A stretch of 64,000 bases of DNA from Candidatus Levyibacteriota bacterium (GCA_963722305.1 CAVRKE010000002.1:379878-443877), one strand, 5' to 3'; numbered from the stretch's first letter, positions 3 through 45,033 are shown. The notes: a model not told the origin generated them from the letters alone. Numbers and translations: made by a program.

Positions 3-3000
3 TTTACTAATGAACTCCCTTACGGACAGATTGTTGCCCCAACTGCCATTAACGATTATTTTGTTTTGGGAGGAAGCACGGTCGAAACCGGAACGCTGAC
101 TTTTAACCCGGCAGCCGCCAACTTAACAATTGGCACCAATAATACCGGCAGCGGTGGACAAAACGGTACTTTGACTTTATATTCTGCCGGCAATGCTGTG
201 ACCGATACTTATCTAACCACCAATAATAATGGCGATCTATTAATCCCTACTAATAACGTCGGCATTGGCGCCACTCCGACAGATTTAGACGCGGATAGTA
301 ATCCGTTTAAATTGGAAGTGGCCGGCAGCATTGGCCCCAACCAAAACGGAGTTTATGATTTGGGCTCGCCAACCATGCAATACAGAAATCTCTATTTGAC
401 TGGTCAGACAACCTCCGGCGGAAACATCACTATCGCCAACACCTCCCCATCAATCACGTTTACGGATACCACTCCTTTGGAAAATGAATATGAGATTAAT
501 GTCGACCATTCCCAATTTACGGTTACAAACAATACGACCGGAGCTAATGCTATCACTGTTAACGCCAACGGCAATATTGATCTTGCCGGTGGATCGCTTG
601 CTACAGGGTGCACTATCGATAACGCCACCGGCAATTTGAGTTGCTCAGGCTCCGGCACTTTCGGCAACGGCCTTACCGTTACCACCGGTGCGGTGAATGT
701 AACCGGCACTTCAGGGGCATTAAGTCTTTCCGGACTGGGGGCATCAAGTATTGCCTTAACCGGAGCAAATAACTTACTCATCACTGCCAACAATTTCAAC
801 GCGACTGCAACCGGAATTAACAATACCGCCATTGGCACTGACCTTCAGTCAAGCGGTGCATTTACTACTTTAAGTGCCAGTGGGACGGTAACCCTCTCCA
901 ATCTTCCGTTTAATGGTCCTGTTTACGCAACTGCCGGCGGAGTCTTAACTTCCGAACAATATCTCTCTCCCTCAAGAGGAGGAACCGGGCTTGATGCCTC
1001 AGCTGCTCCCAACGGTTCTTTATTGATTGGTAACGGTACCGGTTATACTCTGGCAACAATCTCCGGAAGCTTAAACCAGGTAAATGTGACCAATGGCGCC
1101 GGAACAATCACCCTTTCCCTCCCCCAGGATATTGCCCTAACCTCTACCCCGACTTTTACGGGAATGAATTTGACAAGTACCAATAACCAACTGGTATTGG
1201 GAAATACCAATGCCGCTAACCATACCTTAACAATTAACTCCCCTTCCCAAACCGCTAACGTCACCGCATTAATTCCTTCGCTGACCAATCCCGGCGGCGA
1301 TACTTTTGTGTTTGCGGAGCAGGCCCAAACTCTGGACAACAAAACCATCGGCTCAAGCGGGTTGGTTTTCTCCGGAGCAACTGCGGATATTAATACCCAG
1401 TCAGGTAAAGACTTAACTGTTTCTACCACCGGACTGGGAACGCAGATTGTTCTTTCTTCGGTAGTTAAACTTGGTACCATTGCTTCTGCCCCAAGTTATC
1501 CAAATACCGCTACCACCCTTTGTCGGGATGATACCAGCGGACAAATTTCCCAATGTCCGGCCAACGCCGCCAACGTTGATTTACAGCAGGCATATAATGC
1601 CGGAAACACTATCACCACCAACAACAATAACAATATTACCTTTAACCTGGCCGGTGGCGAGACAACTTCATTTGTTTTAAACAATTCCGGAACCGCTCCC
1701 GCATTTGTGATTAACGACATGAATGCCGGGTTAGGAACTGTACTGGAAGTTCAATCTGCCACTAATCCAACGTTAACTGTTTTGGAAAACGGTACACTTT
1801 CAACTGTTGGTAATTTAATTACTACCGGCACCGGCTCGATTACTTCCGCAAGCACCCTGACTGCCCAAGCCACCTCAAACCAGCTGGTCTTAGGCACAGG
1901 CAGCGCCACTACTACTTTTAACTCCGCCGCTGCCACCGCTCAAACGGTGAATATCCCCGAACTCTTAACTTCAGATAGTGATACCTTTGCCTTCGTTAAC
2001 GAAGCTCAGACTTTGCTGAACAAAACCATCGGCTCCTCGGGTTTGGTTTTCTCCGGAGCAACTGCGGATATTAATACCCAGTCAGGTAAAGACTTAACTG
2101 TTTCTACCACCGGACTGGGAACGCAGATTGTTCTTTCTTCGGTAGTTAAACTTGGTACCATTGCTTCTGCCCCAAGTTATCCAAATACCGCTACCACCCT
2201 TTGTCGGGATGATACCAGCGGACAAATTTCCCAATGTCCGGCCAACGCCGCCAACGTTGATTTACAGCAGGCATATAATGCCGGAAACACTATCACCACC
2301 AACAACAATAACAATATTGGTTTTACCTTAGCTAATGGTGAATCAACTCAGTTTACTTTAGCCAATGCCGGCAATGCCACTTCCGCTTTTGTCATCAGTG
2401 ATGCTAATGCTGCCCACAACGCTTTGCAAATTTTATCAGGAGCTACCCCGACTTTAACCCTTGGCATCAACGGCGATATCACCACTCCCGGCAATATCAC
2501 CACTAACAGTGGCGGAACTATTACTTCAGCCGGTTTACTAACTGGGTCAAACGGATTAACCGTCACCACCGGTGCAATTAATCTTACCGGCACCTCCGGG
2601 GCATTAAATTTATCCGGCTTGAGTGCATCAAGTATTGCCTTAACCGGAGCGAATAACTTACTCATCACTGCCAATAACTTTAATGTAACTGGAACCGGGA
2701 TTAACAATACAGCTATTGGAGCAACCACTCAATCAAGCGGAGCCTTTACTACTTTAAGTGCCAGTGGGACGGTAACCCTCTCCAATCTTCCGTTTAATGG
2801 TCCTGTCTACGCAACTGCCGGCGGAGTCTTAACTTCCGAACAATACCTGTCTACAACCAGAGGCGGTACCGGACTTGACACTTCCTTGGCCCAAAACGGT
2901 GAACTTTTGATTGGTAACGGTGCCGGTCTTTCCTTAGGATACATCGGGGGAACTTTAAACCAAATTAATGTTGCCAGCACTTCCGGGACAATCACCCTTT

Positions 3001-31400: not shown

Positions 31401-34400
31401 GATAAATCAACTGCCAATATCTTTAATACCACAGCAACCACAGTTAATCTGGGTGGGGCTGCCACTACTATCTCCTTGGGGGCAACCAGTGGTACTACTA
31501 CTATTAATAGTGGCACCCTTTCTTTGCCTAATGCCACAGCGGTTACTGCCGGCAGTGCTCTACTGACTATTGATTCTGCTTCGATTGGTGGAGGGTATGG
31601 TTCAACCGGGGTAACTATCAGTAACACCGGCAATATCCAGGCAGACGGCACTTTAACCATTGGCAGCACTTCCGACCTTAAAGGACAAGTAACAGCAGAA
31701 GCCGGAGTTAAAGTTAACGGGACAGGTTCCACTGCGGATATAACCACGGATAAATCAACTGCCAATATCTTTAATACCACAGCAACCACAGTTAATCTGG
31801 GTGGGGCTGCCACTACTATCTCCTTGGGGGCAACCAGTGGTACTACTACTATTAATAATAACCTGGCGGTAAGTCTGGTTGATAATAGTGCTTATGCCTT
31901 CAGTGTCTATGAAGGAGCCAATAGCTATCTTAATGTCAGCACCGTGGATAGCAGTGAGAATGTCGCTTTTGGCAATACTAGTACCAATCCTTCCTATTCC
32001 TTCTTAGGTAGTGGAGCTACTACCTTTACCGGAAATATTAATGCCAACTCCGGAGTGATTGCTACTAGCCAATCATCAGCCAGCATTTTTAACTCTACTG
32101 CTACTACTGTAAACCTTGGTGGTGCGGCAACCAATATTAATATCGGGGCAACCAGTGGTACAGCGACTATTAAAAACGCCATTGTTTCCTTGCCTAATGC
32201 TACACAAGTTAATGCCAGTAATGCCGCCGGTAACTTTAACTCTCTAACCACCGGTGGAGGTTATACATCAACCGGAGCAACTATTGGCAGCAGTGGTAAT
32301 ATTCAGGCCAATGGAACCTTAACTATTAACGGTACTTCCCTATTAAGCGGAGCGGTTACTACTAATGATACTCTAACAGTTAACGGTACAACAAATGCTA
32401 ATATTGTTTCTTCTAATTCCACTGTTAACCTCTTTAACTCCGGCTCCTCCTCTTTGTATATCGGTGGAGGTGCATCCACCATTTCTTTGGGGGCAACCAC
32501 TGGGACAACCACGGTGAATACCGATTTAACCCTTGGCTCCGGTAAGAAATTAACCACCACCGGTCCGGTTTCTTTCAATCCGGGAAGTAGTAATAACGTT
32601 GCAATAACTACCGGTGCCAGTTCGTTCCTGGTGATTAGCGGCTTAAGCCAAACTAGTGGATCGGCAATTTGTGTTGATTCCTCAAACCGTGTCGTAAAGT
32701 GCGATTCCTCAACTCAAGGCTTGCAAGCCGCTTATAACAACGGTAATACGATTACTACTGCCAGCTCTAAAGATATTGCCTTTAATCTGGCGAATAATTC
32801 CAACTTCTCGGTAACTACCGCTGCTGATACTACCGGTTATTCCATATTTAGGGAAGGTCCTAATTCTATTACTACAGTTCCAAACCAGTTAATCTTGGTT
32901 GATAATGCCGGGACTATCCCAGTACCAGAAGGAATTGTTATTGGTAACTCCGGTGGTGGTGGCATTATCACCGGCGTTGATGTTTCTGCTGCAACTACCA
33001 CCGGTATCGCTTTAGGTGGAACAGGAATCTCGGGAACCAACTTCAACGTTAATGGTTCAACCGGAGATGTTACCACCAGCGGCACGATTAATGCTAACGG
33101 CGGAACTATTGCTACCACTTCTACCGGAACTGTAAATCTTTTCAATACCAACGCCACCGGCCTTAATATCGGCGGAGCGGCTACTGGAGTAAGTATCGGA
33201 GCAACTAGTGGTACAGCGACTATTAAAAACGCTATTATTTCTCTACCTAATGCTACACAAGTTAATGCCAGTAATGCCAGCGGCAACTTCAACTCCCTAA
33301 CCACCGGTAGCGGTTACACTTCGGGGACCGGAACAACTATTACTTCAACCGGCGTAATCCAAACCAAAAGCAACCTAACTGTTGACGGAAGTTCTACTCT
33401 AACCGGAGATGTTACCACCAGCGGCACTATTAATGCTAACGGCGGAACTCTTGCTACCTCGGTTACCGGAACAGCTAGTATTTTCAATACCAACGCAACC
33501 GGACTTAATATTGGCGGAGCAGCAACCACTATTTCTTTAGGGGCGACATCCGGAACAACCACCATTAACAATAACTTAACTCTTGGTTCCGGTAAAACCT
33601 TAACCACCACCGGTCCTGTTTCTTTCAATCCGGGAAGCGGCAATAACGTTGCAATTACTACCGGTGCCAGCTCCTTCTTGACTATTAGCGGCTTAAGCCA
33701 AAATGCCGGCAGCTCGCTTTGCTTAGACGGTTCCAACCATGTCGGCACTTGTAACAGCGCTGCCCAAAGTTTGCAGGCCGCCTATAACAACGGCAATACT
33801 ATCACCACAACCGACGCTAGAGATATTGCTTTCACTCTGGCTCCTCATGTTTCTACTACCGATTCTAACTTTACGGTAACCACCGCTAACGGTTCAACCG
33901 GAGGTACCCAATTCTTAAGAGCCAGCGGAGGAAGCACTAATAATCCTTCACAATTAGTCTTAATTCAAAATCAGGCAACAGGAGCTTTACCGATTGGTCT
34001 AAAGGTTGGAGGAGTTGTCACTACCGCTGTTGACCTTTCGGATTCAAATATCGTCAATGCCTTAAACCTTGGCGGCGGAAATGTTTTAGCCAGTAAATTC
34101 TCTATCACCGGCTCAACCGGTAATATCTCAACCAGTGGCACCTTAACAGTTGATGGCGGTTCGATTGCTACCACCATCAGCAGCTCCACTATTAACTTGT
34201 TTAATACTAATGCTACCACTGTCAATCTTGGTGGAGCGGCAACCACTTTGGCGATGGGCGCAACCAGCGGCACAGCCAGTATCAACAATACGACCATTAA
34301 CTTTAATAATGCTACTGCCATCAACGCCGCCAGCGCAGTGACAGGAGTTAGTTCCCTAACCACCGGCGGAGGTTATGGCTCAACCGGAGCAACTATTGAT

Positions 34401-37400
34401 AATAGCGGTAATATCCAGGCCAAAGGAACCTTAACTATTGATAGCACTTCCCAATTAAGCGGAGCAGTTACTACCAACGGTACTCTCACCGTTAACGGTG
34501 CATCATCAGCTAATATTGTTTCTTCTAATTCCACTGTTAACCTCTTTAACTCCGGCTCCTCCTCTTTGTATATCGGTGGAGGTGCATCCACCATTTCTTT
34601 GGGGGCAACCACTGGGACAACCACGGTGAATACCGATTTAACCCTTGGCTCCGGTAAGAAATTAACCACCACCGGTCCGGTTTCTTTCAATCCGGGAAGT
34701 AGTAATAATGTTGCGATTACCGGCGGTGCTAATTCATATATTACTGTTTCCGGAATGCAGACAACCACCGGTCAATCTCCCACACTTTGTATTGATTCTT
34801 CAAATCGTATTGTTAAATGCGATGCTTCGGCCAACTTAAGCTTGCAATCCGCCTACAACAACGGTAATTCAATTACTACTACCAGCTCTAAAGATATTGT
34901 CTTTAATCTGGCGAATAATTCCAACTTCTCGGTAACTACTGCCGCCGGAGCAACCGGTAATTCTATGTTTAGTGAGGCAGCCAATGCAGGTTCGACTGTT
35001 CCAACTCAATTAATCTTGGTTGATAACGCCGGAGTCTTAGGTGTGGACAATGCAATTCCGACAGCCATTAAAGTTACCAGTACTGGCGGAGCCGGGTTTA
35101 CCACCGGCATTGATGTCTCTGCCGCTTTAACTACCGGTATTGCTTTAGGAACAAGCGGAATTTCCGGAACTTACTTTAATGTTGATACAGCAGGTAATAC
35201 TAGTATGAACGGCACCTTAACGGTTAACGGTGGAACGATTGGCACTACTGTCAGCCTTTCCACTATTAACTTGTTTAATACCAATGCTACCACTGTTAAT
35301 CTTGGTGGAGCAGCAACCAATTTGGCGATGGGCGCAACCAGCGGCACAGCCACAATTAATAATGCTATTGTTAACTTCCCACATGCTACTACCATTGGAG
35401 CAAGCGGTGCTGCCGGTAACTTTAAGTCTTTAACCACCGGCGGAGGTTATGGCTCAACCGGAGCAACTATTGATAATAGCGGTAATATCCAGGCCAAAGG
35501 AACCTTAACTATTGATAGCACTTCCCAATTAAGCGGAGCAGTTACTACCAACGGTACTCTCACCGTTAACGGTGCATCATCAGCTAATATTGTTTCTTCT
35601 AATTCCACTGTTAACCTCTTTAACTCCGGCTCCTCCTCTTTGTATATCGGTGGAGGTGCATCCACCATTTCTTTGGGGGCAACCACTGGGACAACCACGG
35701 TGAATACCGATTTAACCCTTGGCTCCGGTAAGAAATTAACCACCACCGGTCCGGTTTCTTTCAATCCGGGAAGTAGTAATAATGTTGCGATTACTACCAG
35801 CGGTAATTCTTTCCTGTCTGTTTCCGGACTGCAGGCCAGCACCGGAACACCGATTTGTGTTGACGGTTCAAACCACGTTGTCACCTGTACTGCATCAGCA
35901 ACGCTGCAATCCGCCTACAACAACGGTAATTCAATTACTACTACCAGCTCTAAAGATATTGTCTTTAATCTGGCGAATAATTCCAACTTCTCGGTAACTA
36001 CTGCCGCCGGAGCAACCGGTAATTCTATGTTTAGTGAGGCAGCCAATGCAGGTTCGACTGTTCCAACTCAATTAATCTTGGTTGATAACGCCGGAGTCTT
36101 AGGTGTGGACAATGCAATTCCGACAGCCATTAAAGTTACCAGTACTGGCGGAGCCGGGTTTACCACCGGCATTGATGTCTCTGCCGCTTTAACTACCGGT
36201 ATTGCTTTAGGAACAAGCGGAATTTCCGGAACTTACTTTAATGTTGATACAGCAGGTAATACTAGTATGAACGGCACCTTAACGGTTAACGGTGGAACGA
36301 TTGGCACTACTGTCAGCCTTTCCACTATTAACTTGTTTAATACCAATGCTACCACTGTTAATCTTGGTGGAGCAGCAACCAATTTGGCGATGGGCGCAAC
36401 CAGCGGCACAGCCACAATTAATAATGCTATTGTTAACTTCCCACATGCTACTACCATTGGAGCAAGCGGTGCTGCCGGTAACTTTAAGTCTTTAACCACC
36501 GGCGGAGGTTATGGCTCAACCGGAGCAACTATTGATAATAGCGGTAATATCCAGGCCAAAGGAACCTTAACTATTGATAGCACTTCCCAATTAAGCGGAG
36601 CAGTTACTACCAACGGTACTCTCACCGTTAATGGTACGCCCAATGCTAATATTGTTTCTTCTAATTCCACTGTTAACCTCTTTAACTCCGGCTCCTCCTC
36701 TTTGTATATCGGTGGAGGTGCATCCACCATTTCTTTGGGGGCAACCACTGGGACAACCACGGTGAATAATAATTTAACTATAACCGGCACCTTAACCGGT
36801 AATGGACAAACCAATCTAACCCCGGCAAATAATAATAACGTTGCAATAACTCTTGCGGGAACATCTAATTTCTCAATTACCGGATTAAGCGGAGCCGCCG
36901 GCACATCACTTTGTCTTGACTCGTCTAACCGTGTGGCAACTTGCAACGCCGGCTCATCTGCTGCAACACTGCAATCAGCTTATAACACTGGCAACACTAT
37001 TACTACCTCTAGCTCAAAAGATATTACCTTTAGTCTTGCCGGTTCAAGCTCTAATTTCTCGGTCATCACTCCTGCCAGCTCAACCGCATATTCCGCTTTC
37101 ACCAGAGCCAGCGGTACAGGCTCGGTCGATCCTAGCCAATTGGTCTTAATCCAAAACCAACAAACCAGAACCTTGCCGATTGGCTTAAAAGTTGCCGGAG
37201 TTTCCAGTGGAGTGGTTACTACCGCGATTGACCTTTCAGATGCCAACATCACTAATGCTTTAGCCCTTGGAGCCGGCAACATTACTGCTACCCACTTCTC
37301 TCTTACCGGCTCGAATGGAAATCTTTCAACCGACGGAACTTTAGCGGTTAACGGTGGCACTATCAGCACTAACCAATCAACCTTTAATTTGGTTAACGAT

Positions 37401-40400
37401 GTAACTGCTACTACGGTTAATTTTGCCGAAGGCGCAACTAACCTTACCATGGGCGCAACCAGCGGTACTGCCAGCATTAGAAATGGCGTTCTTTCTTTGC
37501 CAAACGCCACCGCTGTTAATGCCAGCAGCGCCACCGGTAACTTTTATTCCTTGACCACCGGCGGCGGTTATAGCTCAACCGGAGCAACTATTGATAATAG
37601 CGGTAATATCCAGGCCAAAGGAACATTAACTATTGATAGCACTTCCCAATTAACCGGAACCGTTACCGCCGGAGGAGGACTGGTCGTTAACGGCACCGGT
37701 TTAACCGGCGATATTACCACCGCTAAAGCCACCGGCACATTGTTTAATACTTCAACCGCTACTGTCAATATTGGAGGGGCCGCCACTACAATTAGCATCG
37801 GAGCAACTACCGGAACAACCACCATCAACAACGCCTTAACAATATCCGGAACTTTGACGGCCAACGGCGCCGCCAATATCGGTAATGGTAGTAGTACCAT
37901 TGCTTTAAGCGGCACTACCCTAACAACTACTACAACCAGCACAAATACAATCAGCATCCCCGACAATCTTGCCAGTGCCTTTGACATTAAACAAGGCAGT
38001 AATGATTACTTTAATATCACTACTACTAACGGCAGCAGATCAATAAGTTTTGGCAATGCTACCACTAATCCTGCCTACAACTTTAATGGCAGTGGCACGA
38101 TGACACTTACGGGTAGCTTGGTAGTTAACGGCGGCAATGTTTCCGCCACTTCCGGTACGTCTGTTAACTTATTCAACACCAGCCAAACTACTTCGCTAAG
38201 TATCGGCGGGAACGCAACAACTATTGCGCTTGGAGCGGCAACCGGAACTACCACCGTTAGCAATAATTTGACGGTTTCCGGCGCCACCACCACCCTTGCT
38301 TCAACACTGGTTAGTCTGACCGGCACCTCCCCTGTCGTTGACACAACCGGCTCAAATACTCTGAGCATTAATGCTACACACAATAATCCGGTTACTTTTG
38401 GCTCGGGTACATTTACTGTTAATTCCAGCACTATTAATTTGGCGGGTACCTCCCCTGTTGCAATTGCTGCCACCACCACCAATGCCGCCTTGGCCATTGA
38501 CAGTAACGGCAGCGGTGCTCTAAATCTTCAGGGCACTAATACCACCGGCGACGTCAACATTGCCGGCGGCTATAATAACACCGGCTGCACTATTTATAAT
38601 GCCAGTGGAAATATTTCCTGCTCCGGCTCATTTACTACCAATGCCAGTACCGGCACCGTCCAGTTTGGCTACTTTAACAGAAACTTTACCACCGGAGTAA
38701 TTTCCAATGCTACTGCCGGTGACACATTATCGATTTCCTCAACCAGTAACGGTACTTCGGCCTTAACTATTGCCAATACTGCCTTGACCGGAAACGGTAT
38801 TGCCGGATTTACCAATAATTTGACTATTACCGGAACCGGTGCGGGAAATAAATACTACGGAGAGAATACAACGGTTACCAACAACCAAACCGGTGCTGCC
38901 GACACGGCTTATGGAGAAAATATTTCCTTCGTCGATGCCGGAGCTTTGGCCAATACAGTTTATGGCTTATACGTTGACGCAAGCACGGCAAACGCCAATG
39001 ATACACAATACGCCGCGGCCTTTATGAACGGCAATGTCGGAATTGGCACCAATACTCCCACCGCCAAACTTGGTATCACGGGAGCAACCGGTGACACCGG
39101 CCTTACTCTAGCCGGAATCACCAGCGGAACCGAAATTAACTTATCATCGTCGATTACTTCCGGAACCGGCATGACTATAAATGCCGCCGGTTTGACCAGT
39201 GGAAACGGTATTATTCTAAACGGCACTTCTCCAACCAATCCGGCTGCCTTTAGCGGAAATATGATTAGTATTGCACCGACCCGTACGATATCCAGTGGCA
39301 CTTCCTCGATAAACGATACCGGAAATTATTTAAGCATTGCGCGAAGCAATAGTGTTTCGGTTGCCAATACCTTTACCATTAGCGGTGATTTAGTCAAGTT
39401 ATCATCCGGTTGTACTGTCAGTAATGGTGGGGTTTGTGCAGATACGTCTCATCTGCTTTCTCTTTATCAAACCCTTGCCTCCGCTTCCGGCAGCTTATTG
39501 TATATTAATAATGTTAGCAAAGGCTTGGCGCTTGACATCAACTCCATGGGATATACAAACCCGGTTGCCTCCATTTCGGGGACAACTTCCTTTGCCGCTT
39601 TAGTTGCCAACAATAACGGTGTTGGGGATTTGTTTACCGCTTCCGCCTCCGGTTGGACCAGGTTTAGTATAGATAACAGCGGAAATGTTAATACTACCGG
39701 AAATCTAACATTAGCGGGAACAACCGGGCTAACCCTTTCCGGAAACGGAGCAGACATTAACTTTACAGGCGCTGCCAGTAATATTGATACACTCACTACC
39801 GCCAACAACAATAACTTTGCGATATTGCCAAACGGGACCGGTTTTGTGGGATTAAACACAACGTCCCCTGTGGCTTCGTTTGATGTCAGAGGAAATTCCG
39901 GAACACTCGCCGCTGCTTCAGTCTCGGCTAAAACCAGCTTTGCCGCTTTGGTTGCCAATAATAACGGTGTTGGGGATTTGTTCACCGCTTCCGCCTCCGG
40001 TTGGACCAGGTTTGTCATTAAAAATAATGGTAATGTCGGCATTGGAACCAGTACTCCATCTACTACGGTTGGTGGAAACGTTCTGGAAATCAATTCTACT
40101 GTAGCAGGTAATTCCGGTCTTAAATTCACCCAGCTCAACAGTAACTCAGCTGTGTCATCAAACTATTCACAGTTGCTAGGACTCGATTCATCAGGCGATG
40201 TCGGTCTTTCCAGCGCCGGTATTTCTCTTACTTCACCGGCTCTTGCCTACTGGGATGCTACCCATGATCCGACCGGCGCAAACTATTCTTATCCGCAAGC
40301 TTCAGTACTAAGCCTTGGTAGTACAAATTTTACTCCGACCTGGACCCTTGCCAACGGCGAACAGTTGACTAATGCGAATACAAACGAAACAGGCGATATC

Positions 40401-43400
40401 AACTGGAGTTTCTCCCAAGTGCCGTTTGAGGAAATCCAGTTCCAGTTTAAAGCCGGCGGCGGCAATGGCGCTGACAGCACCTGGTTCTATAGTTACGCCG
40501 ACGACATTCCGACAACTGAATACGGTAACGCTTCCGGCAGTACCCATAACTTTACCCAAGGTTACCTGATTTACTTTACCGAATGGCATAATTGCGTCGG
40601 TATTAGCTATGGTCCGTATCTCGATCAACACCAGTGTAATCCTGGTGCACAAGGCACCGGCCCCATCGCCGCTGCACCCCTTTATAACATTGCCGATGGT
40701 AACTGGCACGCCGTGGACATCCAGATTCTATATAACCAGATTGTTGTCCGTTGGGACGGCAATGTTGTCCTAACCGCTACAGACCAATTTGGCCGGGATA
40801 CTTCTAAATTAAACTTCGGCTTTGCCTCGCGAACCGGCGGAGATGACAACAATCACTATATTAAAGGCTTGCTCGTCACCAAGCTTGGCACTAACACCTC
40901 CCAATATTATATTAGTAGTAACGTTTCACCACTGGCCAGCGGTCTATACTGGAACAATGCTTCCACCAGTGCCAGCACAACAACCGGTCTTGGTAAGTTG
41001 GGTATTAATGTTACAAGCCCAGCTTATACTTTAGAAATGAACGGCACAATGAATATCCATGCCCCGGTTTATAACACCGGCACTGCTGAACAAGGCGGTA
41101 GCCTTACCAATTGTTCTTACGCATCAGGAGGCTCTAATCCTACTGCCAGTACTACCGTTACCGGTATCGGAACAAGCTGGACCTCGGCATTAGTCGGAGA
41201 TATTATCACCATGCCAGACGGAACCGAAGAAACCATTACTGCTGTTGGCAGCACTACGTCGATGACAGTCTCCGGTACACGCGGAATCTGTCCGGGCACC
41301 TACAGTATTAATGCCCCGCAAACCTTAATGGTCAGTAGCGCCAACAGCACCTTGCCTGCTGTTAATGTTGGCGGCGTAAACGCTTATGCGGCACTTGCGG
41401 TTAATAACTCGGGCACCGGCGATGTCTTTACCGCTTCTTCTTCCGGCACAACGCTATTTACCATCGGCCATAATGGTAATCTGACATCTAATGCTTCTTC
41501 CGGTACCGGACTAAACTTTGCCAATAACGGCATTACAACCGATATTAATCTACAAAACGGCGGCACAATTGATAACCACACTAACGGACAAATCAAATTA
41601 GCTACCGCCGGCACCACCGGAAACTTAACTGATGTGGACTTCATCGGAACACCTACTCTAACCGGCGCTCTTAATGGATTACAAGTAGATGTTTCCGGCT
41701 TAACTACTACACAAGCTGGGGCCAATAATTTAACCGGTCTTAATATTGTTGGTTTCCAGGGAGGAAGCACAAATAATTATGGCATGAACATCGGAACAAT
41801 CACCGGAACCGGATCATCTGTAAATTATGGCTTAAATATTGGGAATGTAACCGGCGGAGGAACAAATTATGGCTTAAGAGTTCAAACCATTGCTGCTGCT
41901 GCTGCAAACTATGCCTTATATATTGATGCTCCTGCCCAAAACTACTTTGCCGGAAATCTCGGCTTGGGTACAACTTCACCAAATGCGGCTTTCGATATTG
42001 AAGGCAATACGCAAACACTAGCATTAATCGGCACAGGTGCAACATCTTCAGCCAACATCAGATTCCAAGTTACAAACTCCATCAGCTCAACCGCTTCTGC
42101 GCAAATCTGGAATGCTTTCCCCAATTCAGGAAATTCCGCTTGCACCAACTCACAATGTCATACTGCTTTATCGCTTAAGTTAGGCGCAAACAACACTTCT
42201 CTTCCAGGTCTTGGAGATAGATTCATTAATTTTGCTACCGGAAACGGAACTATCATTGGAAAAATTCAAGGAAACGGAGCCAACGTTGCTTATGCATCAG
42301 CCGGCGGAGACTATGCAGAATGGTTTAGGAAAGATAATCCGGACCAAAATTTTGCTTATGGCGATGTCGTTTGTCTTAATGCCAATGGTAACGTCGTTGA
42401 GTGCGACAGTAATAACAACCAACCCTTAGGTGTTATTTCCAGCTCCTCTGCTTTTATCGGTAATTCTAATTACGACGACGATCCGGCATATGTACTAGTT
42501 GGTTTATTCGGTCAAATTTCAACTAGCGTCAGTAACCAAAACGGCAATATTGAAACCGGTGACTTCTTAACGGTTTCCCCAACCACCGGGGTAGCGATGA
42601 AAGCCAGCAGCGCCGGACAAGTAATTGGTGAGGCCATGGAAGATTATAGTTCTGACCAAGTTGGACAAATTCTAGTCAGAGTCAACCCGACCTGGTATGA
42701 CCCGCAGGTTTATTTGACCGACACCGGTAATTTAAACTTGGTTGATCAAAATGTGTCCGATATTAATTACACTATTCCGCATTATTATACTTTGAATGAT
42801 GCTTTAGGTAATCCGTTGCAAAGAGTCGGCGAATTCTCAAGCGCCCTAATTGCTAATCTGCAAGCAGGAAGCGCCAATATCCAACAATTGACAACTAACG
42901 CTTTGAAAGTTACCGGTGAAAACATCACTATTAACGGACAGAATATCCATGACTATATTGCTTCGATTGTCAACGAGGTTTTGGGCAATCAAACCGGAGT
43001 TCCAACGCCGGAAAACATGCATACCGACTTAATTAGTCCTCTGGCCTCCGATTCTGCCCTGGCAATTAAATTTGATAATAATGAACTGGAAATCTTAAAT
43101 TCTAATACCGCCTCCGGTTCGGCAGTGGCCATTATTGATAACCAGGGCAATGCTTCATTTAGCGGAAAATTGAATTCTAATGAGTTAGCGGTCAGCACCA
43201 ATGCCACTGTTTCCGGAACATTGACTGCCGGCAAGATTGTTGCCAACAGTCTTGAACTATCCAACCAAGCTTTAACCGATTTGGCCAGCGAACTTTCCAC
43301 CGCCTCCGGCTTTGCCGTGAGCGGCGGCTTCCAGATTAACGGCGAGCTGACATCAACCAATGCAACGTTGGGCTCACAGGGCCAATTGGCAATTGATAAT

Positions 43401-45002
43401 AACGGCAATTTGACCACCAGTGGGGCTTTGAATTTGACCAACGGTTCGTTTAGCTCCGACAACAACGGCAACTTGGTGATGCAACTGGCCAATAATACCA
43501 GCGCCACCACTTCAACCCAGTTTACGTTTAAGAATGCTGCCGGAGCCAATGTCTTCTCGGTTGATTCAACCGGCAATGCCGCTTTATCGGGAACTTTAAC
43601 CACCTCTGCCGGCAATTATGATTTGGCTGAGGATTATCCAACCAAAGACGACGTTGAAGCAGGCGATGTTTTGTCGGTGAGCCTTACCGATAATGGGTTT
43701 GTTACCAAATCAAACGGAACTTACGACACTAATGTTATCGGCATTTACTCAACCAAACCCGGTTTCAGACTTTCCGAAACGGATGCAACTATTAACGGCG
43801 GTAAAACAGTTCCAATCGCTCTGGCCGGAAGAGTACCGGTTAAGGTCTCAACTGAAAACGGGGCAATCCATAAGGGCGATTACTTGACCACTTCCTCAAC
43901 AAGCGGGGTGGCTATGAAAGCCAGCAAACCGGGACAAGTCATCGGTAAAGCTTTGGCAGACTTTAACCAAACTGGAGTCGGTAAGATTATGGTCTTTGTT
44001 GATATTACTTTTGCCGATCCGGAAAAAGCCTTGGCCAATATTATCACCGACGATAACGGCAACATCGCCATTTCCAGCATTAGTTCAAACTCTGTCATTC
44101 TGCCGAACGACTTGCAAATCGGTACACAGGAAGTCGGTGGCACACTCAACAATGCCTTACTGGCAATCAGCAATACGCTTACGTCTCATGAAAACAAACT
44201 TAATACTTTGCAAACCGACGTCTTAGGACTAGCAACTCAGTCAGCCAGCTTAAACTCAAGAATTGCCAGTTTGGAAACCATTGAAGCAACTGCTTCTTCG
44301 CAAATTGCCCAAAGCACTAACCAGGTCGCTTCAAATGCCGCCGATGTGGCCAGCTTGAGCAGAAAAGTTGACGACATTATTTCCAGCCTTAGCGCTATGC
44401 CGACTGCGCCGGTTAATGTCAGTTCCGCCGCCGACCTTGGTCTTGGCAATGATGTTGAGTTAAGTACCGCCACTGTTTCCGGAAACCTCAACGTCTTAGG
44501 CCAAACCACTGTTAATGACCTTGGTATCACCGGCAATGTTTCAATGGGAGTTCTTAAACTTAACGGGTTGAATGATAACGGTACTGCCAGCATTAACACT
44601 TTATCCGGTGACCTAAGTCTTCAGGATTACGGGCTGGGCGGATTAAATATTCTTTCCGGCAAAGTGACAATTGATAAAGACGGCAATGTGAATATCCAAA
44701 AAACAGTTACTGCCCAAACCGTGAACACGCAAAAACTGAATATCACTACCGCGACTGCCACTTCTTCGGCAACGCTTAGTGCATCCGCCGGCACTGCCAC
44801 CATTAGTCAGAATACTGACAGTGTCACGATTAAAACCACCGCTGTCACCAACAATTCTTTGATATATGTGACCTTTAGCGGCGACTACAGTCCGGCGGTC
44901 AGGTATTGGATTGAAGGCAAAGTGGCCGGTAATTCATTCACCGTCAAACTCGATGCGGCAGTTGCCAACAGTGTTAAATTCAACTGGTGGATAGTTAATT
45001 AG
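23877..45002 (+). CDS. Giant T/N/G/S-rich modular repeat protein, C-terminal part (or continuation of the same gene). The homologous in-frame sequence really begins after the insertion near 23995; the first ~40 codons of the ORF-track ORF are out-of-frame read-through.
   Basis: 7041-aa ORF. Same module family as the upstream ORF, with 1044 bp identical to its 3' end. Non-repetitive C-terminal 6.5 kb carries a ConA/LamG-like domain, GxVGIGTxxP motifs, paralogous modules and a coiled coil. Stop TAG at 45000-45002. Confidence 0.8.
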   Translation: MFLPLTAEQPLLQDKTSWPRVNQPLHPLPVVVLPLILPMANTFFRLNGLSTAILVPICLDSSNNVIVLYQSTVSLQTAYHGGNTITTTTGRNIDFTLGSGLATSFNLTNQGTATGFNLNNTSSGNALAVTSGGINALTIDNNGNSTSSGNFTTSGNIATANSGTITSNGLLTASNGLTVTTGNVNITGTAGAISLSSLNASSIALSGTNNLTITANNFNVSGTGINNTAIGAGSTQSTGAFTTLSSNNNTTLASGAGATLTLGNTTGTVTLNGSTVSINSNGAGNALSLGIAGNTASAFNVSQGSNKYINVNTSTGTENVAFGNTSTNPSYSFLGTGQTTFGGNVSVSGTLGVTGNTSLSTVNTSGLATLDSLLTENFATVSGTLTVNDLTQLNSTLGVSGNTSLGGTLGVTGNVSVNTNKFTIDASTGNTVIGGTLTVTGNTSLSTLNTSGLATLNSASVTNNETVGGALTVTGVSTFNGGATVASGQNFLAQGQSTFTPSASSGITVNTTNANTFFRLNGLSSNPGTPICLDSSNNVIACANASLSLQNAYLGGNTITTTTGRNIDFTLGSGLATSFNLTNQGTATGFNLNNTSSGNALAVTSGGINALTIDSSGNLTTNGNFSQGGTATTFSTGTGNVSLNGNTAVTGSNTFTVGTGATSLGGTLGVTGNVSVNTNKFTIDASTGNTVIGGTLTVTGNTSLSTLNTSGLATLNSASVTNNETVGGALTVTGVSTFNGGATVASGQNFLAQGQSTFTPSASSGITVNTTNANTFFRLNGLSSNPGTPICLDSSNNVIACANASLSLQNAYLGGNTITTTTGRNIDFTLGSGLATSFNLTNQGTATGFNLNNTSSGNALAVTSGGINALTIDSSGNLTTNGNFSQGGTATTFSTGTGNVSLNGNTAVTGSNTFTVGTGATSLGGTLGVTGNVSVNTNKFTIDASTGNTVIGGTLTVTGNTSLSTLNTSGLATLNSASVTNNETVGGALTVTGVSTFNGGATVASGQNFLAQGQSTFTPSASSGITVNTTNANTFFRLNGLSSNPGTPICLDSSNNVIACANASLSLQNAYLGGNTITTTTGRNIDFTLGSGLATSFNLTNQGTATGFNLNNTSSGNALAVTSGGINALTIDSSGNLTTNGNFSQGGTATTFSTGTGNVSLNGNTAVTGSNTFTVGTGATSLGGTLGVTGNVSVNTNKFTIDASTGNTVIGGTLTVTGNTSLSTLNTSGLATLNSASVTNNETVGGALTVTGVSTFNGGATVASGQNFLAQGQSTFTPSASSGITVNTTNANTFFRLNGLSTPAAAGVALCLDSSNNVTQCSSNTVTLQTAYAGGNTITTTTGRNIDFTLGSGLATSFNLTNQGTATGFNLNNTSSGNALAVTSGGINALTIDSSGNLTTNGNFSQGGTATTFSTGTGNVSLNGNTAVTGSNTFTVGTGATSLGGTLGVTGNVSVNTNKFTIDASTGNTVIGGTLTVTGNTSLSTLNTSGLATLNSASVTNNETVGGLLTANAGVKVNGTGSTADITTDKSTANIFNTTATTVNLGGAATTISLGATSGTTTINNNLAVSLVDNSAYAFSVYEGANSYLNVSTVDSSENVAFGNTSTNPSYSFLGSGATTFTGNINANSGVIATSQSSASIFNSTATTVNLGGAATNINIGATSGTATIKNAIVSLPNATQVNASNAAGNFNSLTTGGGYTSTGATIGSSGNIQAKGTLTIDLTSTLTGLVTASSGVKINGTSTADITTDKSTATLFNTTATTVNIGGAATTISLGATSGTTTINNNLAVTGTGTFTGALTANNNFSANAQSTFTPSSGNGVLINVGNSNSFLRLTGLTSAAGNPICLDSSNNVIACANAALSLQNAYIGGNTITTSDNRDIAFNLAATGADSNFTVTTAAGGIGYSAFVRADGSASLDPSQLVLIQNLNTGRSLPVGLKIAGVNGGNVTTGIDLTDSYLTTAIDVGGNIIKGTDFSITGSNGNITTSGTVAVNSGSITTTYATGNVFNSVASTLNLGGAATNINIGATSGTATIKNAIVSLPNATQVNASNAAGNFNSLTTGGGYTSTGATIDNSGNIQANGNLTIIGTSDLNGNTTVGAALGVTGNVSVNTNKFTIDASTGNTVIGGTLTVTGNTSLSTLNTSGLATLNSASVTNNETVGGALTVTGVSTFNGGATVASGQNFLAQGQSTFTPSASSGITVNTTNANTFFRLNGLSSNPGTPICLDSSNNVIACANASLSLQNAYLGGNTITTTTGRNIDFTLASSGGIGYDANFNITTANGSTSSTIFSLADGSNTTVPNQLVLLDNKNTTNILPSAIKVTSSGGGAITNAIDLSDSHIVNALSLGTGNITSAHFTLTGTSGNISTDGLLTVGAGVKVNGTGSTADITTDKSTATLFNTTATTVNIGGAATAVNIGATSGTTTINSGTLSLPNATAVTAGSALLTIDSASIGGGYGSTGVTISNTGNIQADGTLTIGSTSDLKGQVTAEAGVKVNGTGSTADITTDKSTANIFNTTATTVNLGGAATTISLGATSGTTTINSGTLSLPNATAVTAGSALLTIDSASIGGGYGSTGVTISNTGNIQADGTLTIGSTSDLKGQVTAEAGVKVNGTGSTADITTDKSTANIFNTTATTVNLGGAATTISLGATSGTTTINNNLAVSLVDNSAYAFSVYEGANSYLNVSTVDSSENVAFGNTSTNPSYSFLGSGATTFTGNINANSGVIATSQSSASIFNSTATTVNLGGAATNINIGATSGTATIKNAIVSLPNATQVNASNAAGNFNSLTTGGGYTSTGATIGSSGNIQANGTLTINGTSLLSGAVTTNDTLTVNGTTNANIVSSNSTVNLFNSGSSSLYIGGGASTISLGATTGTTTVNTDLTLGSGKKLTTTGPVSFNPGSSNNVAITTGASSFLVISGLSQTSGSAICVDSSNRVVKCDSSTQGLQAAYNNGNTITTASSKDIAFNLANNSNFSVTTAADTTGYSIFREGPNSITTVPNQLILVDNAGTIPVPEGIVIGNSGGGGIITGVDVSAATTTGIALGGTGISGTNFNVNGSTGDVTTSGTINANGGTIATTSTGTVNLFNTNATGLNIGGAATGVSIGATSGTATIKNAIISLPNATQVNASNASGNFNSLTTGSGYTSGTGTTITSTGVIQTKSNLTVDGSSTLTGDVTTSGTINANGGTLATSVTGTASIFNTNATGLNIGGAATTISLGATSGTTTINNNLTLGSGKTLTTTGPVSFNPGSGNNVAITTGASSFLTISGLSQNAGSSLCLDGSNHVGTCNSAAQSLQAAYNNGNTITTTDARDIAFTLAPHVSTTDSNFTVTTANGSTGGTQFLRASGGSTNNPSQLVLIQNQATGALPIGLKVGGVVTTAVDLSDSNIVNALNLGGGNVLASKFSITGSTGNISTSGTLTVDGGSIATTISSSTINLFNTNATTVNLGGAATTLAMGATSGTASINNTTINFNNATAINAASAVTGVSSLTTGGGYGSTGATIDNSGNIQAKGTLTIDSTSQLSGAVTTNGTLTVNGASSANIVSSNSTVNLFNSGSSSLYIGGGASTISLGATTGTTTVNTDLTLGSGKKLTTTGPVSFNPGSSNNVAITGGANSYITVSGMQTTTGQSPTLCIDSSNRIVKCDASANLSLQSAYNNGNSITTTSSKDIVFNLANNSNFSVTTAAGATGNSMFSEAANAGSTVPTQLILVDNAGVLGVDNAIPTAIKVTSTGGAGFTTGIDVSAALTTGIALGTSGISGTYFNVDTAGNTSMNGTLTVNGGTIGTTVSLSTINLFNTNATTVNLGGAATNLAMGATSGTATINNAIVNFPHATTIGASGAAGNFKSLTTGGGYGSTGATIDNSGNIQAKGTLTIDSTSQLSGAVTTNGTLTVNGASSANIVSSNSTVNLFNSGSSSLYIGGGASTISLGATTGTTTVNTDLTLGSGKKLTTTGPVSFNPGSSNNVAITTSGNSFLSVSGLQASTGTPICVDGSNHVVTCTASATLQSAYNNGNSITTTSSKDIVFNLANNSNFSVTTAAGATGNSMFSEAANAGSTVPTQLILVDNAGVLGVDNAIPTAIKVTSTGGAGFTTGIDVSAALTTGIALGTSGISGTYFNVDTAGNTSMNGTLTVNGGTIGTTVSLSTINLFNTNATTVNLGGAATNLAMGATSGTATINNAIVNFPHATTIGASGAAGNFKSLTTGGGYGSTGATIDNSGNIQAKGTLTIDSTSQLSGAVTTNGTLTVNGTPNANIVSSNSTVNLFNSGSSSLYIGGGASTISLGATTGTTTVNNNLTITGTLTGNGQTNLTPANNNNVAITLAGTSNFSITGLSGAAGTSLCLDSSNRVATCNAGSSAATLQSAYNTGNTITTSSSKDITFSLAGSSSNFSVITPASSTAYSAFTRASGTGSVDPSQLVLIQNQQTRTLPIGLKVAGVSSGVVTTAIDLSDANITNALALGAGNITATHFSLTGSNGNLSTDGTLAVNGGTISTNQSTFNLVNDVTATTVNFAEGATNLTMGATSGTASIRNGVLSLPNATAVNASSATGNFYSLTTGGGYSSTGATIDNSGNIQAKGTLTIDSTSQLTGTVTAGGGLVVNGTGLTGDITTAKATGTLFNTSTATVNIGGAATTISIGATTGTTTINNALTISGTLTANGAANIGNGSSTIALSGTTLTTTTTSTNTISIPDNLASAFDIKQGSNDYFNITTTNGSRSISFGNATTNPAYNFNGSGTMTLTGSLVVNGGNVSATSGTSVNLFNTSQTTSLSIGGNATTIALGAATGTTTVSNNLTVSGATTTLASTLVSLTGTSPVVDTTGSNTLSINATHNNPVTFGSGTFTVNSSTINLAGTSPVAIAATTTNAALAIDSNGSGALNLQGTNTTGDVNIAGGYNNTGCTIYNASGNISCSGSFTTNASTGTVQFGYFNRNFTTGVISNATAGDTLSISSTSNGTSALTIANTALTGNGIAGFTNNLTITGTGAGNKYYGENTTVTNNQTGAADTAYGENISFVDAGALANTVYGLYVDASTANANDTQYAAAFMNGNVGIGTNTPTAKLGITGATGDTGLTLAGITSGTEINLSSSITSGTGMTINAAGLTSGNGIILNGTSPTNPAAFSGNMISIAPTRTISSGTSSINDTGNYLSIARSNSVSVANTFTISGDLVKLSSGCTVSNGGVCADTSHLLSLYQTLASASGSLLYINNVSKGLALDINSMGYTNPVASISGTTSFAALVANNNGVGDLFTASASGWTRFSIDNSGNVNTTGNLTLAGTTGLTLSGNGADINFTGAASNIDTLTTANNNNFAILPNGTGFVGLNTTSPVASFDVRGNSGTLAAASVSAKTSFAALVANNNGVGDLFTASASGWTRFVIKNNGNVGIGTSTPSTTVGGNVLEINSTVAGNSGLKFTQLNSNSAVSSNYSQLLGLDSSGDVGLSSAGISLTSPALAYWDATHDPTGANYSYPQASVLSLGSTNFTPTWTLANGEQLTNANTNETGDINWSFSQVPFEEIQFQFKAGGGNGADSTWFYSYADDIPTTEYGNASGSTHNFTQGYLIYFTEWHNCVGISYGPYLDQHQCNPGAQGTGPIAAAPLYNIADGNWHAVDIQILYNQIVVRWDGNVVLTATDQFGRDTSKLNFGFASRTGGDDNNHYIKGLLVTKLGTNTSQYYISSNVSPLASGLYWNNASTSASTTTGLGKLGINVTSPAYTLEMNGTMNIHAPVYNTGTAEQGGSLTNCSYASGGSNPTASTTVTGIGTSWTSALVGDIITMPDGTEETITAVGSTTSMTVSGTRGICPGTYSINAPQTLMVSSANSTLPAVNVGGVNAYAALAVNNSGTGDVFTASSSGTTLFTIGHNGNLTSNASSGTGLNFANNGITTDINLQNGGTIDNHTNGQIKLATAGTTGNLTDVDFIGTPTLTGALNGLQVDVSGLTTTQAGANNLTGLNIVGFQGGSTNNYGMNIGTITGTGSSVNYGLNIGNVTGGGTNYGLRVQTIAAAAANYALYIDAPAQNYFAGNLGLGTTSPNAAFDIEGNTQTLALIGTGATSSANIRFQVTNSISSTASAQIWNAFPNSGNSACTNSQCHTALSLKLGANNTSLPGLGDRFINFATGNGTIIGKIQGNGANVAYASAGGDYAEWFRKDNPDQNFAYGDVVCLNANGNVVECDSNNNQPLGVISSSSAFIGNSNYDDDPAYVLVGLFGQISTSVSNQNGNIETGDFLTVSPTTGVAMKASSAGQVIGEAMEDYSSDQVGQILVRVNPTWYDPQVYLTDTGNLNLVDQNVSDINYTIPHYYTLNDALGNPLQRVGEFSSALIANLQAGSANIQQLTTNALKVTGENITINGQNIHDYIASIVNEVLGNQTGVPTPENMHTDLISPLASDSALAIKFDNNELEILNSNTASGSAVAIIDNQGNASFSGKLNSNELAVSTNATVSGTLTAGKIVANSLELSNQALTDLASELSTASGFAVSGGFQINGELTSTNATLGSQGQLAIDNNGNLTTSGALNLTNGSFSSDNNGNLVMQLANNTSATTSTQFTFKNAAGANVFSVDSTGNAALSGTLTTSAGNYDLAEDYPTKDDVEAGDVLSVSLTDNGFVTKSNGTYDTNVIGIYSTKPGFRLSETDATINGGKTVPIALAGRVPVKVSTENGAIHKGDYLTTSSTSGVAMKASKPGQVIGKALADFNQTGVGKIMVFVDITFADPEKALANIITDDNGNIAISSISSNSVILPNDLQIGTQEVGGTLNNALLAISNTLTSHENKLNTLQTDVLGLATQSASLNSRIASLETIEATASSQIAQSTNQVASNAADVASLSRKVDDIISSLSAMPTAPVNVSSAADLGLGNDVELSTATVSGNLNVLGQTTVNDLGITGNVSMGVLKLNGLNDNGTASINTLSGDLSLQDYGLGGLNILSGKVTIDKDGNVNIQKTVTAQTVNTQKLNITTATATSSATLSASAGTATISQNTDSVTIKTTAVTNNSLIYVTFSGDYSPAVRYWIEGKVAGNSFTVKLDAAVANSVKFNWWIVN
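25084..28393 (+). repeat. Intragenic tandem array, 777-bp unit (259 aa), about 4.3 copies, near-identical. Copy 4 has a variant Cys-loop.
   Basis: Unit GTLGVTGNVSVNTNKFTIDAS...NGLSSNPGTPICLDSSNNVIACANASLSLQNAYLGGNTITTTTGRNIDF... repeats. Identical antisense ORFs at 25754, 26531, 27308 and 28091. Confidence 0.9.
31005..31860 (+). repeat. Intragenic tandem array, 348-bp unit (116 aa), about 2.4 copies, near-identical.
   Basis: AGVKVNGTGSTADITTDKSTA...LKGQVTAE repeats at 31005, 31353 and 31701. Antisense ORF 30944..31813 shows the internal repeat. Confidence 0.85.
34330..36620 (+). repeat. Imperfect tandem triplication with periods of about 1074 and 1062 bp.
   Basis: Antisense ORF offsets 34373->35447 (1074), 35171->36233 and 35447->36509 (1062). 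Block SSNSTVNLFNSGSSSLYIGGGASTISLGATTGTTTVN recurs. A fourth more distant copy sits near 32400. Confidence 0.75.
40392..40890 (+). other. Concanavalin A/LamG-like lectin (jelly-roll) domain within the giant protein's C-terminal region.
   Basis: Segment ...WFYSYADD...GYLIYFTEWHNCVGISYGP...GNWHAVDIQILYNQIVVRWDGNVVLTATDQFGRDTSKLNFGFASR matches the W-H-x-V...LY-x-N/DG-x-V pattern of the ConA-like/LamG superfamily. This is a motif-level call, not an HMM hit. Confidence 0.45.
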
Positions 45003-45033
45003 GCTGAAAACCGTTTTAAGATAAGCTTGGGTA

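Follow-up and report, generated by a model that had tools for sequence, protein, structure and literature searches.

A giant gene fills positions 3-45002 of a 64,000-bp stretch (hereafter the window) of a Candidatus Levyibacteriota genome assembly (GCA_963722305.1, CAVRKE010000002.1:379878-443877). We propose, with a probability of roughly 0.55, that this one gene, which carries three insertions in the assembly, encodes a giant extracellular, homotrimeric, phage-tail-fibre-like adhesive surface fibre of a Levybacteria-type bacterium from the candidate phyla radiation (CPR; Patescibacteria). The cell-surface fibre or adhesin of the original prediction, which was made from the sequence of the window, is thereby kept as the best reading. 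As a kind of object it is not unprecedented (PMC8080830, PMC10769870).

One gene interrupted by three insertions

Frame 3 of the window is open from base 3 to base 22643 (7546 codons), including an open reading frame (ORF) of 7525 aa at 66..22643 on the plus strand, and a second plus-strand ORF of 7041 aa (23877..45002) lies in the same frame. Below 46 kb, 55 stops were counted in frame 3, 30 of them within 22641-23871, versus 719 in frame 1 and 1386 in frame 2. The openness, size, composition and modular build of these giant ORFs are far beyond chance. They had been described as a giant gene or gene pair, with the two ORFs back to back and filling 70% of the window. The lengths, the extent and the giant repeat-built gene were borne out by our analysis; the pair of back-to-back genes was not, because the gap between the ORFs reads as a stalk module out of frame after three +1 insertions.

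Module sequence runs through this 1.2-kb gap in frame 1 (22618-23115) and then in frame 2 (23120-23992), where a 300-aa ORF (23108..24010) also translates to module sequence, and DNA comparison showed that 22401-24200 is a 97% copy of 23831-25622. Compared to sister copies, three single bases are inserted, A at ~22621, C at 23117 and G at 23993, the last of which is absent from six other module copies; each insertion shifts the frame by +1 and the three together bring frame 3 back. The GTG "start" at 23877 is located inside a module, its first ~39 codons being an out-of-frame translation, and no promoter-like or terminator-like sites were found in 22400-24200. The module sequence in the gap, the insertions relative to sister copies and the lack of such sites led us to reject two genes with a real intergenic region. 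After repair of the three insertions, one stop-free frame of 14,996 aa was obtained, matching the predicted product of more than 14,500 aa with a 5' end outside the window. These data indicate that positions 3-45002 are a single gene, 5'-truncated by the window edge, with a product of at least 14,996 aa. The many antisense ORFs that it contains (150-290 aa; 6353-43615, minus strand), several of which recur every 1395 bp with the repeat period, were rejected as genes, since the repeat composition is stop-poor.

Should the insertions be real, the locus would be a decaying or phase-off allele, recently inactivated or switchable by slippage or recombination, whose product would at most be a protein, of 7,546 aa or more, that lacks the lectin tip and the chaperones, the second ORF staying untranslated (no start context, no signal). 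We regard this as possible, if rather unlikely. None of the three insertions lies in a long homopolymer, which counts for real mutation, and they fall within 22.56-24.1 kb together with apparent compensated local shifts that destroy one of the Cys pairs marking the modules (NNVIVLYQSTV, elsewhere NNVIACANAS); IS110, IS1595 and rve remnants nearby suggest a plastic region. However, the other 43 kb is stop-free in frame, unexpected for an old pseudogene, and the insertions are confined to one duplicated, 97%-identical module, where consensus or polishing errors are likeliest. Moreover, the same family is shattered in related assemblies from the European Nucleotide Archive (ENA), as in locus L002 (ERZ25039513 contig_57579), where an array of at least 12 kb of the same stalk modules is split into 16 frame-shifted pieces, a pattern typical of noisy long-read consensus.

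Two phage-type chaperone domains and a lectin-type fold near the C-terminus

The distal region with the lectin-type, chaperone, coiled-coil and end domains (Table 1) covers the last ~2,100 aa. Its most informative feature, overlooked in the originally predicted architecture, is a pair of domains of the Peptidase_G2 (phi29 gp12) autocleavage type that follow the lectin-type domain. When the two ~200-aa window copies were aligned with eight homologous domains (alignment A1), the D, A and E of a D-x-A-E motif proved invariant in 10/10 sequences; in the repaired frame, to which all residue numbers here refer, the motifs start at Asp14100 and Asp14537. The A1 profile matched the phi29 pre-neck appendage protein gp12 (6qz9, E 1.8e-6; 3gqh, E 7.6e-6) and chaperone domain D4 of the tailspike Dpo31 (2e-5). 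The crystallised cleaved gp12 fragment 3gqh, whose sequence is the same in a second PDB entry (3gqk), begins with DFAEYF and was aligned with the D-x-A-E motif. Furthermore, the homologue P0003, 30-47% identical across the region, scores 54 bits in Pfam PF11962, above the cut-off of 25, at the stretch equivalent to the second domain. At profile level, both window domains can thus be assigned transitively to Peptidase_G2 (PF11962).

The C-terminal domain of gp12 is an auto-chaperone for trimer assembly that is cut off after folding (PMC3357383). The two G2-type domains would accordingly imply a homotrimeric, phage-fibre-like assembly and the loss of the last ~900 aa, the predicted cleavage just before Asp14100 of DYAE releasing the last 897 aa. 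Among 54 related ORFs, one G2-type domain was found in 38 and two in 10, and the closest relatives have two. With a profile of the last 300 aa, only marginal coiled-coil matches were retrieved from the PDB (reovirus sigma-1, 5e-4; P22 gp26), and a relationship to these proteins was set aside as compositional.

A distinct, non-repetitive C-terminal region with a lectin-like domain had also been predicted, which was supported by sub-threshold Pfam matches (3keto-disac_hyd and Laminin_G_1), by the AlphaFold2 (AF2) fold and by Foldseek. The AF2 model is a 12-strand beta-sandwich with a mean predicted local distance difference test score (pLDDT) of 47 (core 55-81). Foldseek found 410 PDB matches at E<=1e-3, and the first 50 listed are nearly all of the concanavalin A (ConA)-like lectin/glucanase fold. 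The best is a legume-lectin domain (7elv, 2.6e-8), followed by CBM66, VIP36/ERGIC-53 and GH16, with target template modelling scores of 0.5-0.66 for the top matches. A phmmer search of the PDB with the last 1,500 aa gave no match. In this low-confidence model, the region appears to form the jelly-roll beta-sandwich of the ConA-like superfamily. Of the proposed receptor-binding tip on a long stalk, a distinct tip region with a lectin-type fold is retained; the lectin-type domain is near rather than at the primary C-terminus, since the two Peptidase_G2-type domains come after it.

A modular, repeat-built stalk

The stalk (12,858 aa) consists to 65.6% of Thr, Asn, Gly, Ser and Ala, consistent with the Thr/Asn/Gly/Ser-rich repeats noted earlier, and Asn is the second commonest residue of the giant protein. 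Charged residues make up 4.8% (Lys and Arg 1.4%) and aromatic residues 4.3%, with four Trp in total, so that "almost devoid of charged and aromatic residues" gives the trend correctly in slightly overstated words. Cys is nearly confined to C-x9-11-C pairs, and cutting at these pairs yielded ~30 stalk modules, whose start reads C(L/I/V)DSSNxVxxC...LQxAYxxGNTITT (alignment A3). Spacings within the predicted module range of 259-474 aa were indeed found (259, 259, 261, 350-380, 465 and 474 aa), sizes of 259-261, 350-380 and 465 aa being frequent; the full range is wider, at ~150-947 aa. The GC content is 44-48% within the giant gene versus 36-41% in the flanks, with a step at ~44000-46000 that is probably compositional (Gly/Ala/Thr codons) rather than a mark of foreign origin.

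Self-blastn revealed several tandem arrays (Table 1). Repeats of at least 95% identity account for 37% of the gene, including 4.9 kb at 100%, while 44% of the gene lies outside any repeat of at least 80% identity. Because of this latter share, and with no less than ~25 kb of in-frame sequence that is unique, the giant size is robust. The same does not hold for the exact length, and the repeat copy number is not fixed by the sequence because the arrays reach 100% identity. It is nevertheless unlikely that the 45-kb length of an otherwise real gene is an assembly artefact, inflated or deflated by near-identical repeats or joined chimerically from two or more fibre genes near 22.6-24.1 kb. Besides the unique sequence, in which diverged module sub-families stand in order in one frame, the same module types occur on both sides of that junction, 22401-22873 is 99% identical to 27585-28056, which fits an internal duplication, and locus L001 (ENA ERZ25039519 contig_92462) independently holds an array of at least 17 kb of the same stalk modules, in 4 frame-shifted pieces. 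What speaks for an artefact is the near-identity of the 1395-bp (100%) and 777-bp (97-98%) arrays, the indel cluster exactly at a duplicated module, the longest protein among the best 150 module relatives having only 5,657 aa, and the lack of an independent copy, the window sequence not being found in the public genome and metagenome collections scanned (exact 44-mers; exact phosphoenolpyruvate (PEP) synthase look-up). The number of giant fibre genes of this type is probably underestimated, with gene callers reporting many medium-sized proteins, because the arrays of L001 and L002 are split by frameshifts into medium-sized calls.

Pfam, PHROGs and NCBIfam were searched with the N-terminal 2,500 aa, a 1,500-aa block from the middle, further module blocks and the C-terminal 2,641 aa, and nothing passed the threshold for either stalk or tip. 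The RTX, Big/Ig-like, cadherin, FG-GAP, SLH and Hep_Hag/YadA families were unmatched in these searches, and the module profile matched no PDB sequence. The module is thus in no recognised family of these databases, as had been suspected, and neither RTX nor BIG, the families named beforehand as speaking against a new type of module, was hit. Among 1.84 billion proteins, the module profile recovered 1,659 cluster representatives (218 at E<=1e-30), of which the few named ones are called "beta strand repeat-containing protein" or "hypothetical" by their sources. Structure prediction on a single module, which had been recommended earlier, gave an extended AF2 monomer with no DSSP secondary structure and pLDDT of 70-86 over most of residues 100-350. 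Foldseek of this model against the PDB returned 0 matches and hence no known family, as expected for an extended monomer model. Such a model would fit the lone chain of an intertwined homo-oligomeric fibre, short of proof.

Several module relatives of ~700-900 aa (P0029, P0030, P0032 and P0035) end in Peptidase_S74 right after the Cys loop (...CIDASDNVVKCSGTP, followed directly by SDRRLK). In P0030 and P0032, the N-termini were inspected and found to bear a Sec signal peptide; both proteins comprise 1-2 modules. The gene neighbours of P0030 are ordinary cellular genes. Because the module is joined in these short relatives to S74, a second trimer-specific intramolecular chaperone (IMC), the stalk may be a trimer-building element, and the co-occurrence of the module with two different trimer-specific chaperones (G2 and S74) indirectly supports a trimeric stalk.

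No kind of bacterial protein above 10,000 aa is commoner than the giant monomeric repeat adhesin, and the support for a trimer is indirect here. Both points would favour an adhesin that forms a single-chain beta-solenoid, or an S-layer-like coat, comparable to RTX, ice-binding or Bap-type proteins, its G2-like domains serving only in processing or anchoring. We consider such a monomeric protein slightly less likely again than an artefact of size, since RTX, Big, cadherin, FG-GAP, SLH and the other adhesin and S-layer repeat families were all unmatched, the module is joined to the G2-type chaperone here and to S74 in the short relatives, and the AF2 monomer lacks intrachain sheets, unlike beta-solenoids, which AF2 normally folds.

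A family with a conserved C-terminal cassette

A genome scan with two C-terminal cassette patterns, one of them the NWWIVN-end signature, yielded at least 124 confirmed loci. The named ones belong mostly to Levybacteria/Levyibacteriota, and also to Roizman-, Gottesman- and Amesbacteria, Saccharimonadales and other Patescibacteria. The shortest ORFs that end in the signature have ~400 aa and the longest at least 4,066 aa, a length at which the 10-kb flank was exhausted. The family is a mosaic of variable stalk and conserved C-terminal cassette, because stalks differ between members, those of L003, L019 and L049 being without A3-type modules. No description of this fibre family or its architecture was found in the literature searched.

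The N-termini of complete relatives (L039, L042, L011, L046, L059, L037, L023 and L045) contain one or two Phage_int_SAM_1 domains (E 1e-7 to 1e-22) or a MerR helix-turn-helix (HTH) domain (3e-13), followed in most of them by one hydrophobic helix and then the stalk. Searching all fetched loci by tblastn with the first 520 aa of the window product gave short module-type matches only and no N-terminal anchor. In L042 (615-kb chromosome OZ246397.1), a separate 160-aa SAM-like protein is encoded just upstream of the fibre gene, and a 2,155-aa surface-type protein (11983-18450) with 3 Laminin_G_3, Gly_rich_2, DUF2341 and Ig domains directly after it; the next genes encode a TPR protein and an M23/LysM peptidase, forming a surface-protein cluster.

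A more speculative and improbable idea is that the fibre is the outer half of a single-chain transmembrane link made of a cytoplasmic DNA-binding-type domain, a transmembrane helix and a micrometre-scale trimeric fibre, the last being assembled by the phage-type self-cleaving chaperone and perhaps glycosylated by the Wzy_C/TPR protein encoded nearby. When the lectin touches a host, tension or regulated proteolysis would pass the contact on to DNA binding or gene regulation inside the CPR cell. The eukaryotic MYRF is similarly a membrane-tethered, chaperone-domain-containing factor; its topology would be reversed here.

Genomic neighbourhood

The gene following the fibre gene encodes a PEP synthase, which is also the next gene in L005 (a Levyibacteriota metagenome-assembled genome, MAG), L004 and L003, with 82%, 81% and 79% identity, respectively, to that of the window. 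In these loci it is followed, as in the window, by the 546-aa HEYLH protein and the Wzy_C/TPR protein, and this synteny assigns the window to a Levybacteria-like CPR bacterium. By tblastn, the 546-aa protein was matched in 7 loci, between the fibre gene and the Wzy_C gene. Homologues of the Wzy_C/TPR protein were found in 38/84 fetched loci, with distant members matching mainly the TPR half, and L002 also has one; in 24 of the 52 loci with a recognisable fibre 3' end, they lie downstream of the fibre gene. Since the Wzy_C family includes protein O-oligosaccharyltransferases, this protein may be a partner of the fibre, acting in the glycosylation or attachment of a chain rich in Thr and Ser.

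The PEP synthase, aspartate aminotransferase and PEP carboxylase downstream of the fibre gene constitute a small PEP/oxaloacetate/aspartate module in a reduced genome, and the tRNA-Asn gene is the sole RNA family found in the window. No phage genes were found among the genes downstream of the fibre gene in the window. With PEP synthase, aspartate aminotransferase, PEP carboxylase and a GT4 glycosyltransferase in the flank and with synteny in the Levyibacteriota MAG, a cellular gene rather than a phage gene is the best reading. A tail fibre gene of a prophage, tailocin or other virus-derived mobile element is very improbable: the best-known IMC domains of this type are those of phage tailspikes, the second G2-like domain gave weak tblastn matches to jumbo-phage virion proteins and some remote module relatives have an Mtd_N domain or a tail-fibre-protein name, but the 19 kb downstream holds only housekeeping or insertion sequence (IS) genes, the order fibre-PEP synthase-Wzy_C is kept across MAGs, complete relatives open with a cytoplasmic domain and a transmembrane helix, which is not a virion-protein architecture, the 45-kb gene is larger than most phage genomes, and a phage origin of the stalk was rejected on the absence of any module tblastn match in 50,697 phage genomes.

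Table 1. Features of the giant fibre gene and its downstream neighbours in the window.
Feature	Position	Strand	Basis
First stalk part, 5'-truncated, modules 0-19	3..22613	+	Stop-free from base 3 to 22641; Cys pairs; no Pfam/NCBIfam match
Perfect tandem array, 3.5 x 1395 bp (465 aa), 100% DNA identity	6211..11071	+	Self-blastn
Frameshifted module (gap between the two ORFs as first read)	22614..23993	+	Module text in other frames; sister-copy alignment
Second stalk part, modules 20-31	23994..38585	+	Module table; alignment A3; self-blastn
Tandem array, 4.3 x 777 bp, 97-98% identity	25083-28397	+	Self-blastn
Tandem array, 2.5 x 348 bp	31005-31857	+	Self-blastn
Non-repetitive distal shaft with GIGT(N/S)TP... 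motifs, no named domain	38586..40339	+	Kept in P0001 and P0002
Putative ConA-like lectin/glucanase-fold beta-sandwich, ~180 aa	40340..40880	+	Sub-threshold Pfam; AF2; Foldseek
First Peptidase_G2-like (phi29 gp12-type) domain	42081..42752	+	D-Y-A-E at 42309-42320; alignment A1
Second Peptidase_G2-like domain	43431..44060	+	D-L-A-E at 43620-43631; alignment A1
Coiled coil (~90 aa), then conserved beta-rich end domain (~170 aa) ending K-F-N-W-W-I-V-N, stop	44100..45002	+	Alignment A5
PEP synthase	45079..47538	+	NCBIfam equivalog, 1145 bits
546-aa membrane protein with HEYLH (HExxH metalloprotease-like) motif	47569..49209	+	No Pfam/NCBIfam family match
Wzy_C (O-antigen-ligase family) + TPR polytopic membrane protein	49225..51537	-	Pfam Wzy_C 6e-11, plus TPR
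IS1595-type fragment	51664-52128		
Aspartate aminotransferase	52473-53636		
Archaeal-type PEP carboxylase	53623-55131		TIGR02751, 477 bits
GT4 glycosyltransferase	Downstream of the fibre gene		
tRNA-Asn(GTT)	57575-57647	+	
IS110 family transposase, full-length	59154-60101		
Lytic-transglycosylase-like secreted protein (SLT/Transglycosylas), 170 aa, with (P-T-P-T-L-T) linker	60520-61032	-	
HTH+rve integrase, truncated	61485-62195		

Proposed assembly of the fibre and comparison with known systems

From the single frame, the modular architecture, the G2-type domains with their motif, the lectin-type fold, the family distribution and the synteny, we infer the following for trimer state, cleavage, export, anchoring, length and ligand. 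After export, the N-terminus would keep the chain attached to the cell. The G2-type chaperone domain or domains and the coiled coil would bring three chains into register, and the folding of the intertwined Thr/Asn/Gly/Ser-rich stalk would be nucleated from the C-terminal end, as in phi29 gp12. The chaperone domains would then cut themselves off just before Asp14100, leaving a mature fibre of ~14,100 aa per chain. Scaled from Bd3182 of Bdellovibrio bacteriovorus or from T4 gp34, which we take as a length yardstick, this fibre would measure ~0.8-1.0 micrometre, several times a CPR cell diameter. The ConA-like lectin domain would come to lie ~500 residues from the new distal end and could bind glycans of a host cell or substrate. 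Glycosylation or attachment of the fibre may fall to the adjacent Wzy_C/TPR membrane protein.

Several points weigh against this proposal. The true length of the gene is uncertain, given the share of it that lies in nearly identical repeats, and, if the three frameshifts are real, this allele would not yield a full-length protein. The window does not reach the N-terminus of the giant protein or its signal and anchor, and the first 520 aa encoded in the window could not be aligned to the region following the transmembrane helix in relatives. The G2-like domains of the window are themselves below the Pfam threshold, their assignment resting on a ten-sequence profile and one homologue, and a described precedent for two tandem IMC domains was not found in the literature searched. 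The phi29 chaperone acts in the cytoplasm, and release of the cleaved fragment has been linked to ATP, whereas a chaperone of the proposed fibre would have to work outside a cell. The lectin model is of low confidence overall, and the extended module model (predicted template modelling score 0.46), on which the trimer reading draws, could equally be a poor one.

The closest functional analogue of the proposed fibre is the mosaic adhesive trimer (MAT) fibres of Bdellovibrio bacteriovorus, such as Bd3182 and Bd2740, which are trimeric with S74 or lectin tips; Bd3182 has 922 aa (781 mature) and was modelled as a ~55-nm fibre (PMC10769870). Like the fibre proposed here, MATs are cell-encoded, surface-displayed, phage-tail-fibre-like fibres of a bacterium living on other bacteria, in which a long stalk rich in beta structure leads to a distal end that is mosaic and exchangeable and carries lectin-fold or self-cleaving-chaperone tips, and the layout of their S74-type members (signal peptide, stalk, Peptidase_S74) is that of the short relatives of the window module. 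In the window, the tip elements are a lectin-type fold and a duplicated G2-type chaperone instead of S74. MATs also differ in length (~1,000 aa versus at least 15,000 aa, ~15 times longer here) and in belonging to a diderm predator rather than a CPR bacterium, and a search with the module profile detected no similar sequence among chains of solved structure. Moreover, MATs have a signal peptide and a ~130-aa N-terminal beta domain, whereas complete relatives of the window protein have SAM-like or MerR domains and a transmembrane helix, a difference that speaks against membership in the strict sense.

Among relatives of known biochemistry, the chaperone domain of phi29 gp12 (PF11962; PDB 3GQ7/3GQH/6QZ9) is nearest in sequence. 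The two share the C-terminal D-x-A-E at which the cleaved fragment starts, profile-level similarity (E 1.8e-6) and the placement of the domain after a beta-rich fibre or spike region. However, gp12 has only 854 aa, contains a single-domain pectate-lyase-like beta-helix plus a lone chaperone domain and is built onto a virion within the cytoplasm. The window protein, which is cellular and presumably exported, has two copies of the domain, and after them come a coiled coil and an additional conserved end domain.

The closest biological precedent is the large membrane or surface proteins (1,392-4,163 aa) of the predatory CPR bacterium Vampirococcus lugosii, for which a fibrous surface and a role in host recognition and attachment were proposed (PMC8080830). 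They come from the same kind of organism and most lack functional annotation. They contain WD40, PKD, DUF11, integrin or fibronectin-type domains, none is described with phage-type chaperones, and the window protein is more than 3.5 times longer and built from another repeat module.

In West-Roberts et al. 2023 (bioRxiv 10.1101/2023.11.21.568195), genes for proteins of more than 10,000 aa are called "large" and those of at least 30,000 aa "giant". By this scheme, the window gene (~15,000 aa visible) falls in the "large" class, and it resembles the large and giant genes of Omnitrophota and other phyla in coming from an ultra-small bacterium, in its proposed role in cell attachment and in having domains found via structure prediction. 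According to the abstract, the giant proteins described there have numerous transmembrane regions and mostly divergent SecA DEAD helicase domains, none of which is seen in the available 15,000 aa of the window protein, where no helicase or other Pfam domain passed its threshold. In its section on phylum distribution, CPR is not listed with the phyla rich in such genes.

Significance

Of interest are the size of the gene, the presence of two copies of a phage-type chaperone on a cellular protein and the DNA-binding-type domains with which its relatives begin, within the limits set by the assembly, the frameshifts and the off-window N-terminus. Its C-terminal cassette (G2-type chaperone plus "NWWIVN" domain) defines a family of at least 124 loci with stalks from ~400 to at least 15,000 aa. 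There is also a practical warning, in that such genes are shattered or mis-sized in assemblies, so that their size distribution is underestimated. With the proposed fibre, the reach of phage-type intramolecular chaperones would grow beyond virions and predator fibres of ~1,000 aa to cellular proteins tenfold longer, and the question arises of how three 15,000-residue chains would be registered and folded outside a cell.

CPR bacteria represent a large share of bacterial diversity and live mostly attached to other cells, and we know of no account of how CPR lineages other than Saccharibacteria find or hold their hosts. At ~4% of a genome of ~1.1 Mb (the size of the Levybacteria chromosome OY970292.1), this one gene is a very large investment, suggesting a central role, and the fibre it may encode is a concrete molecular candidate for host attachment in CPR bacteria.

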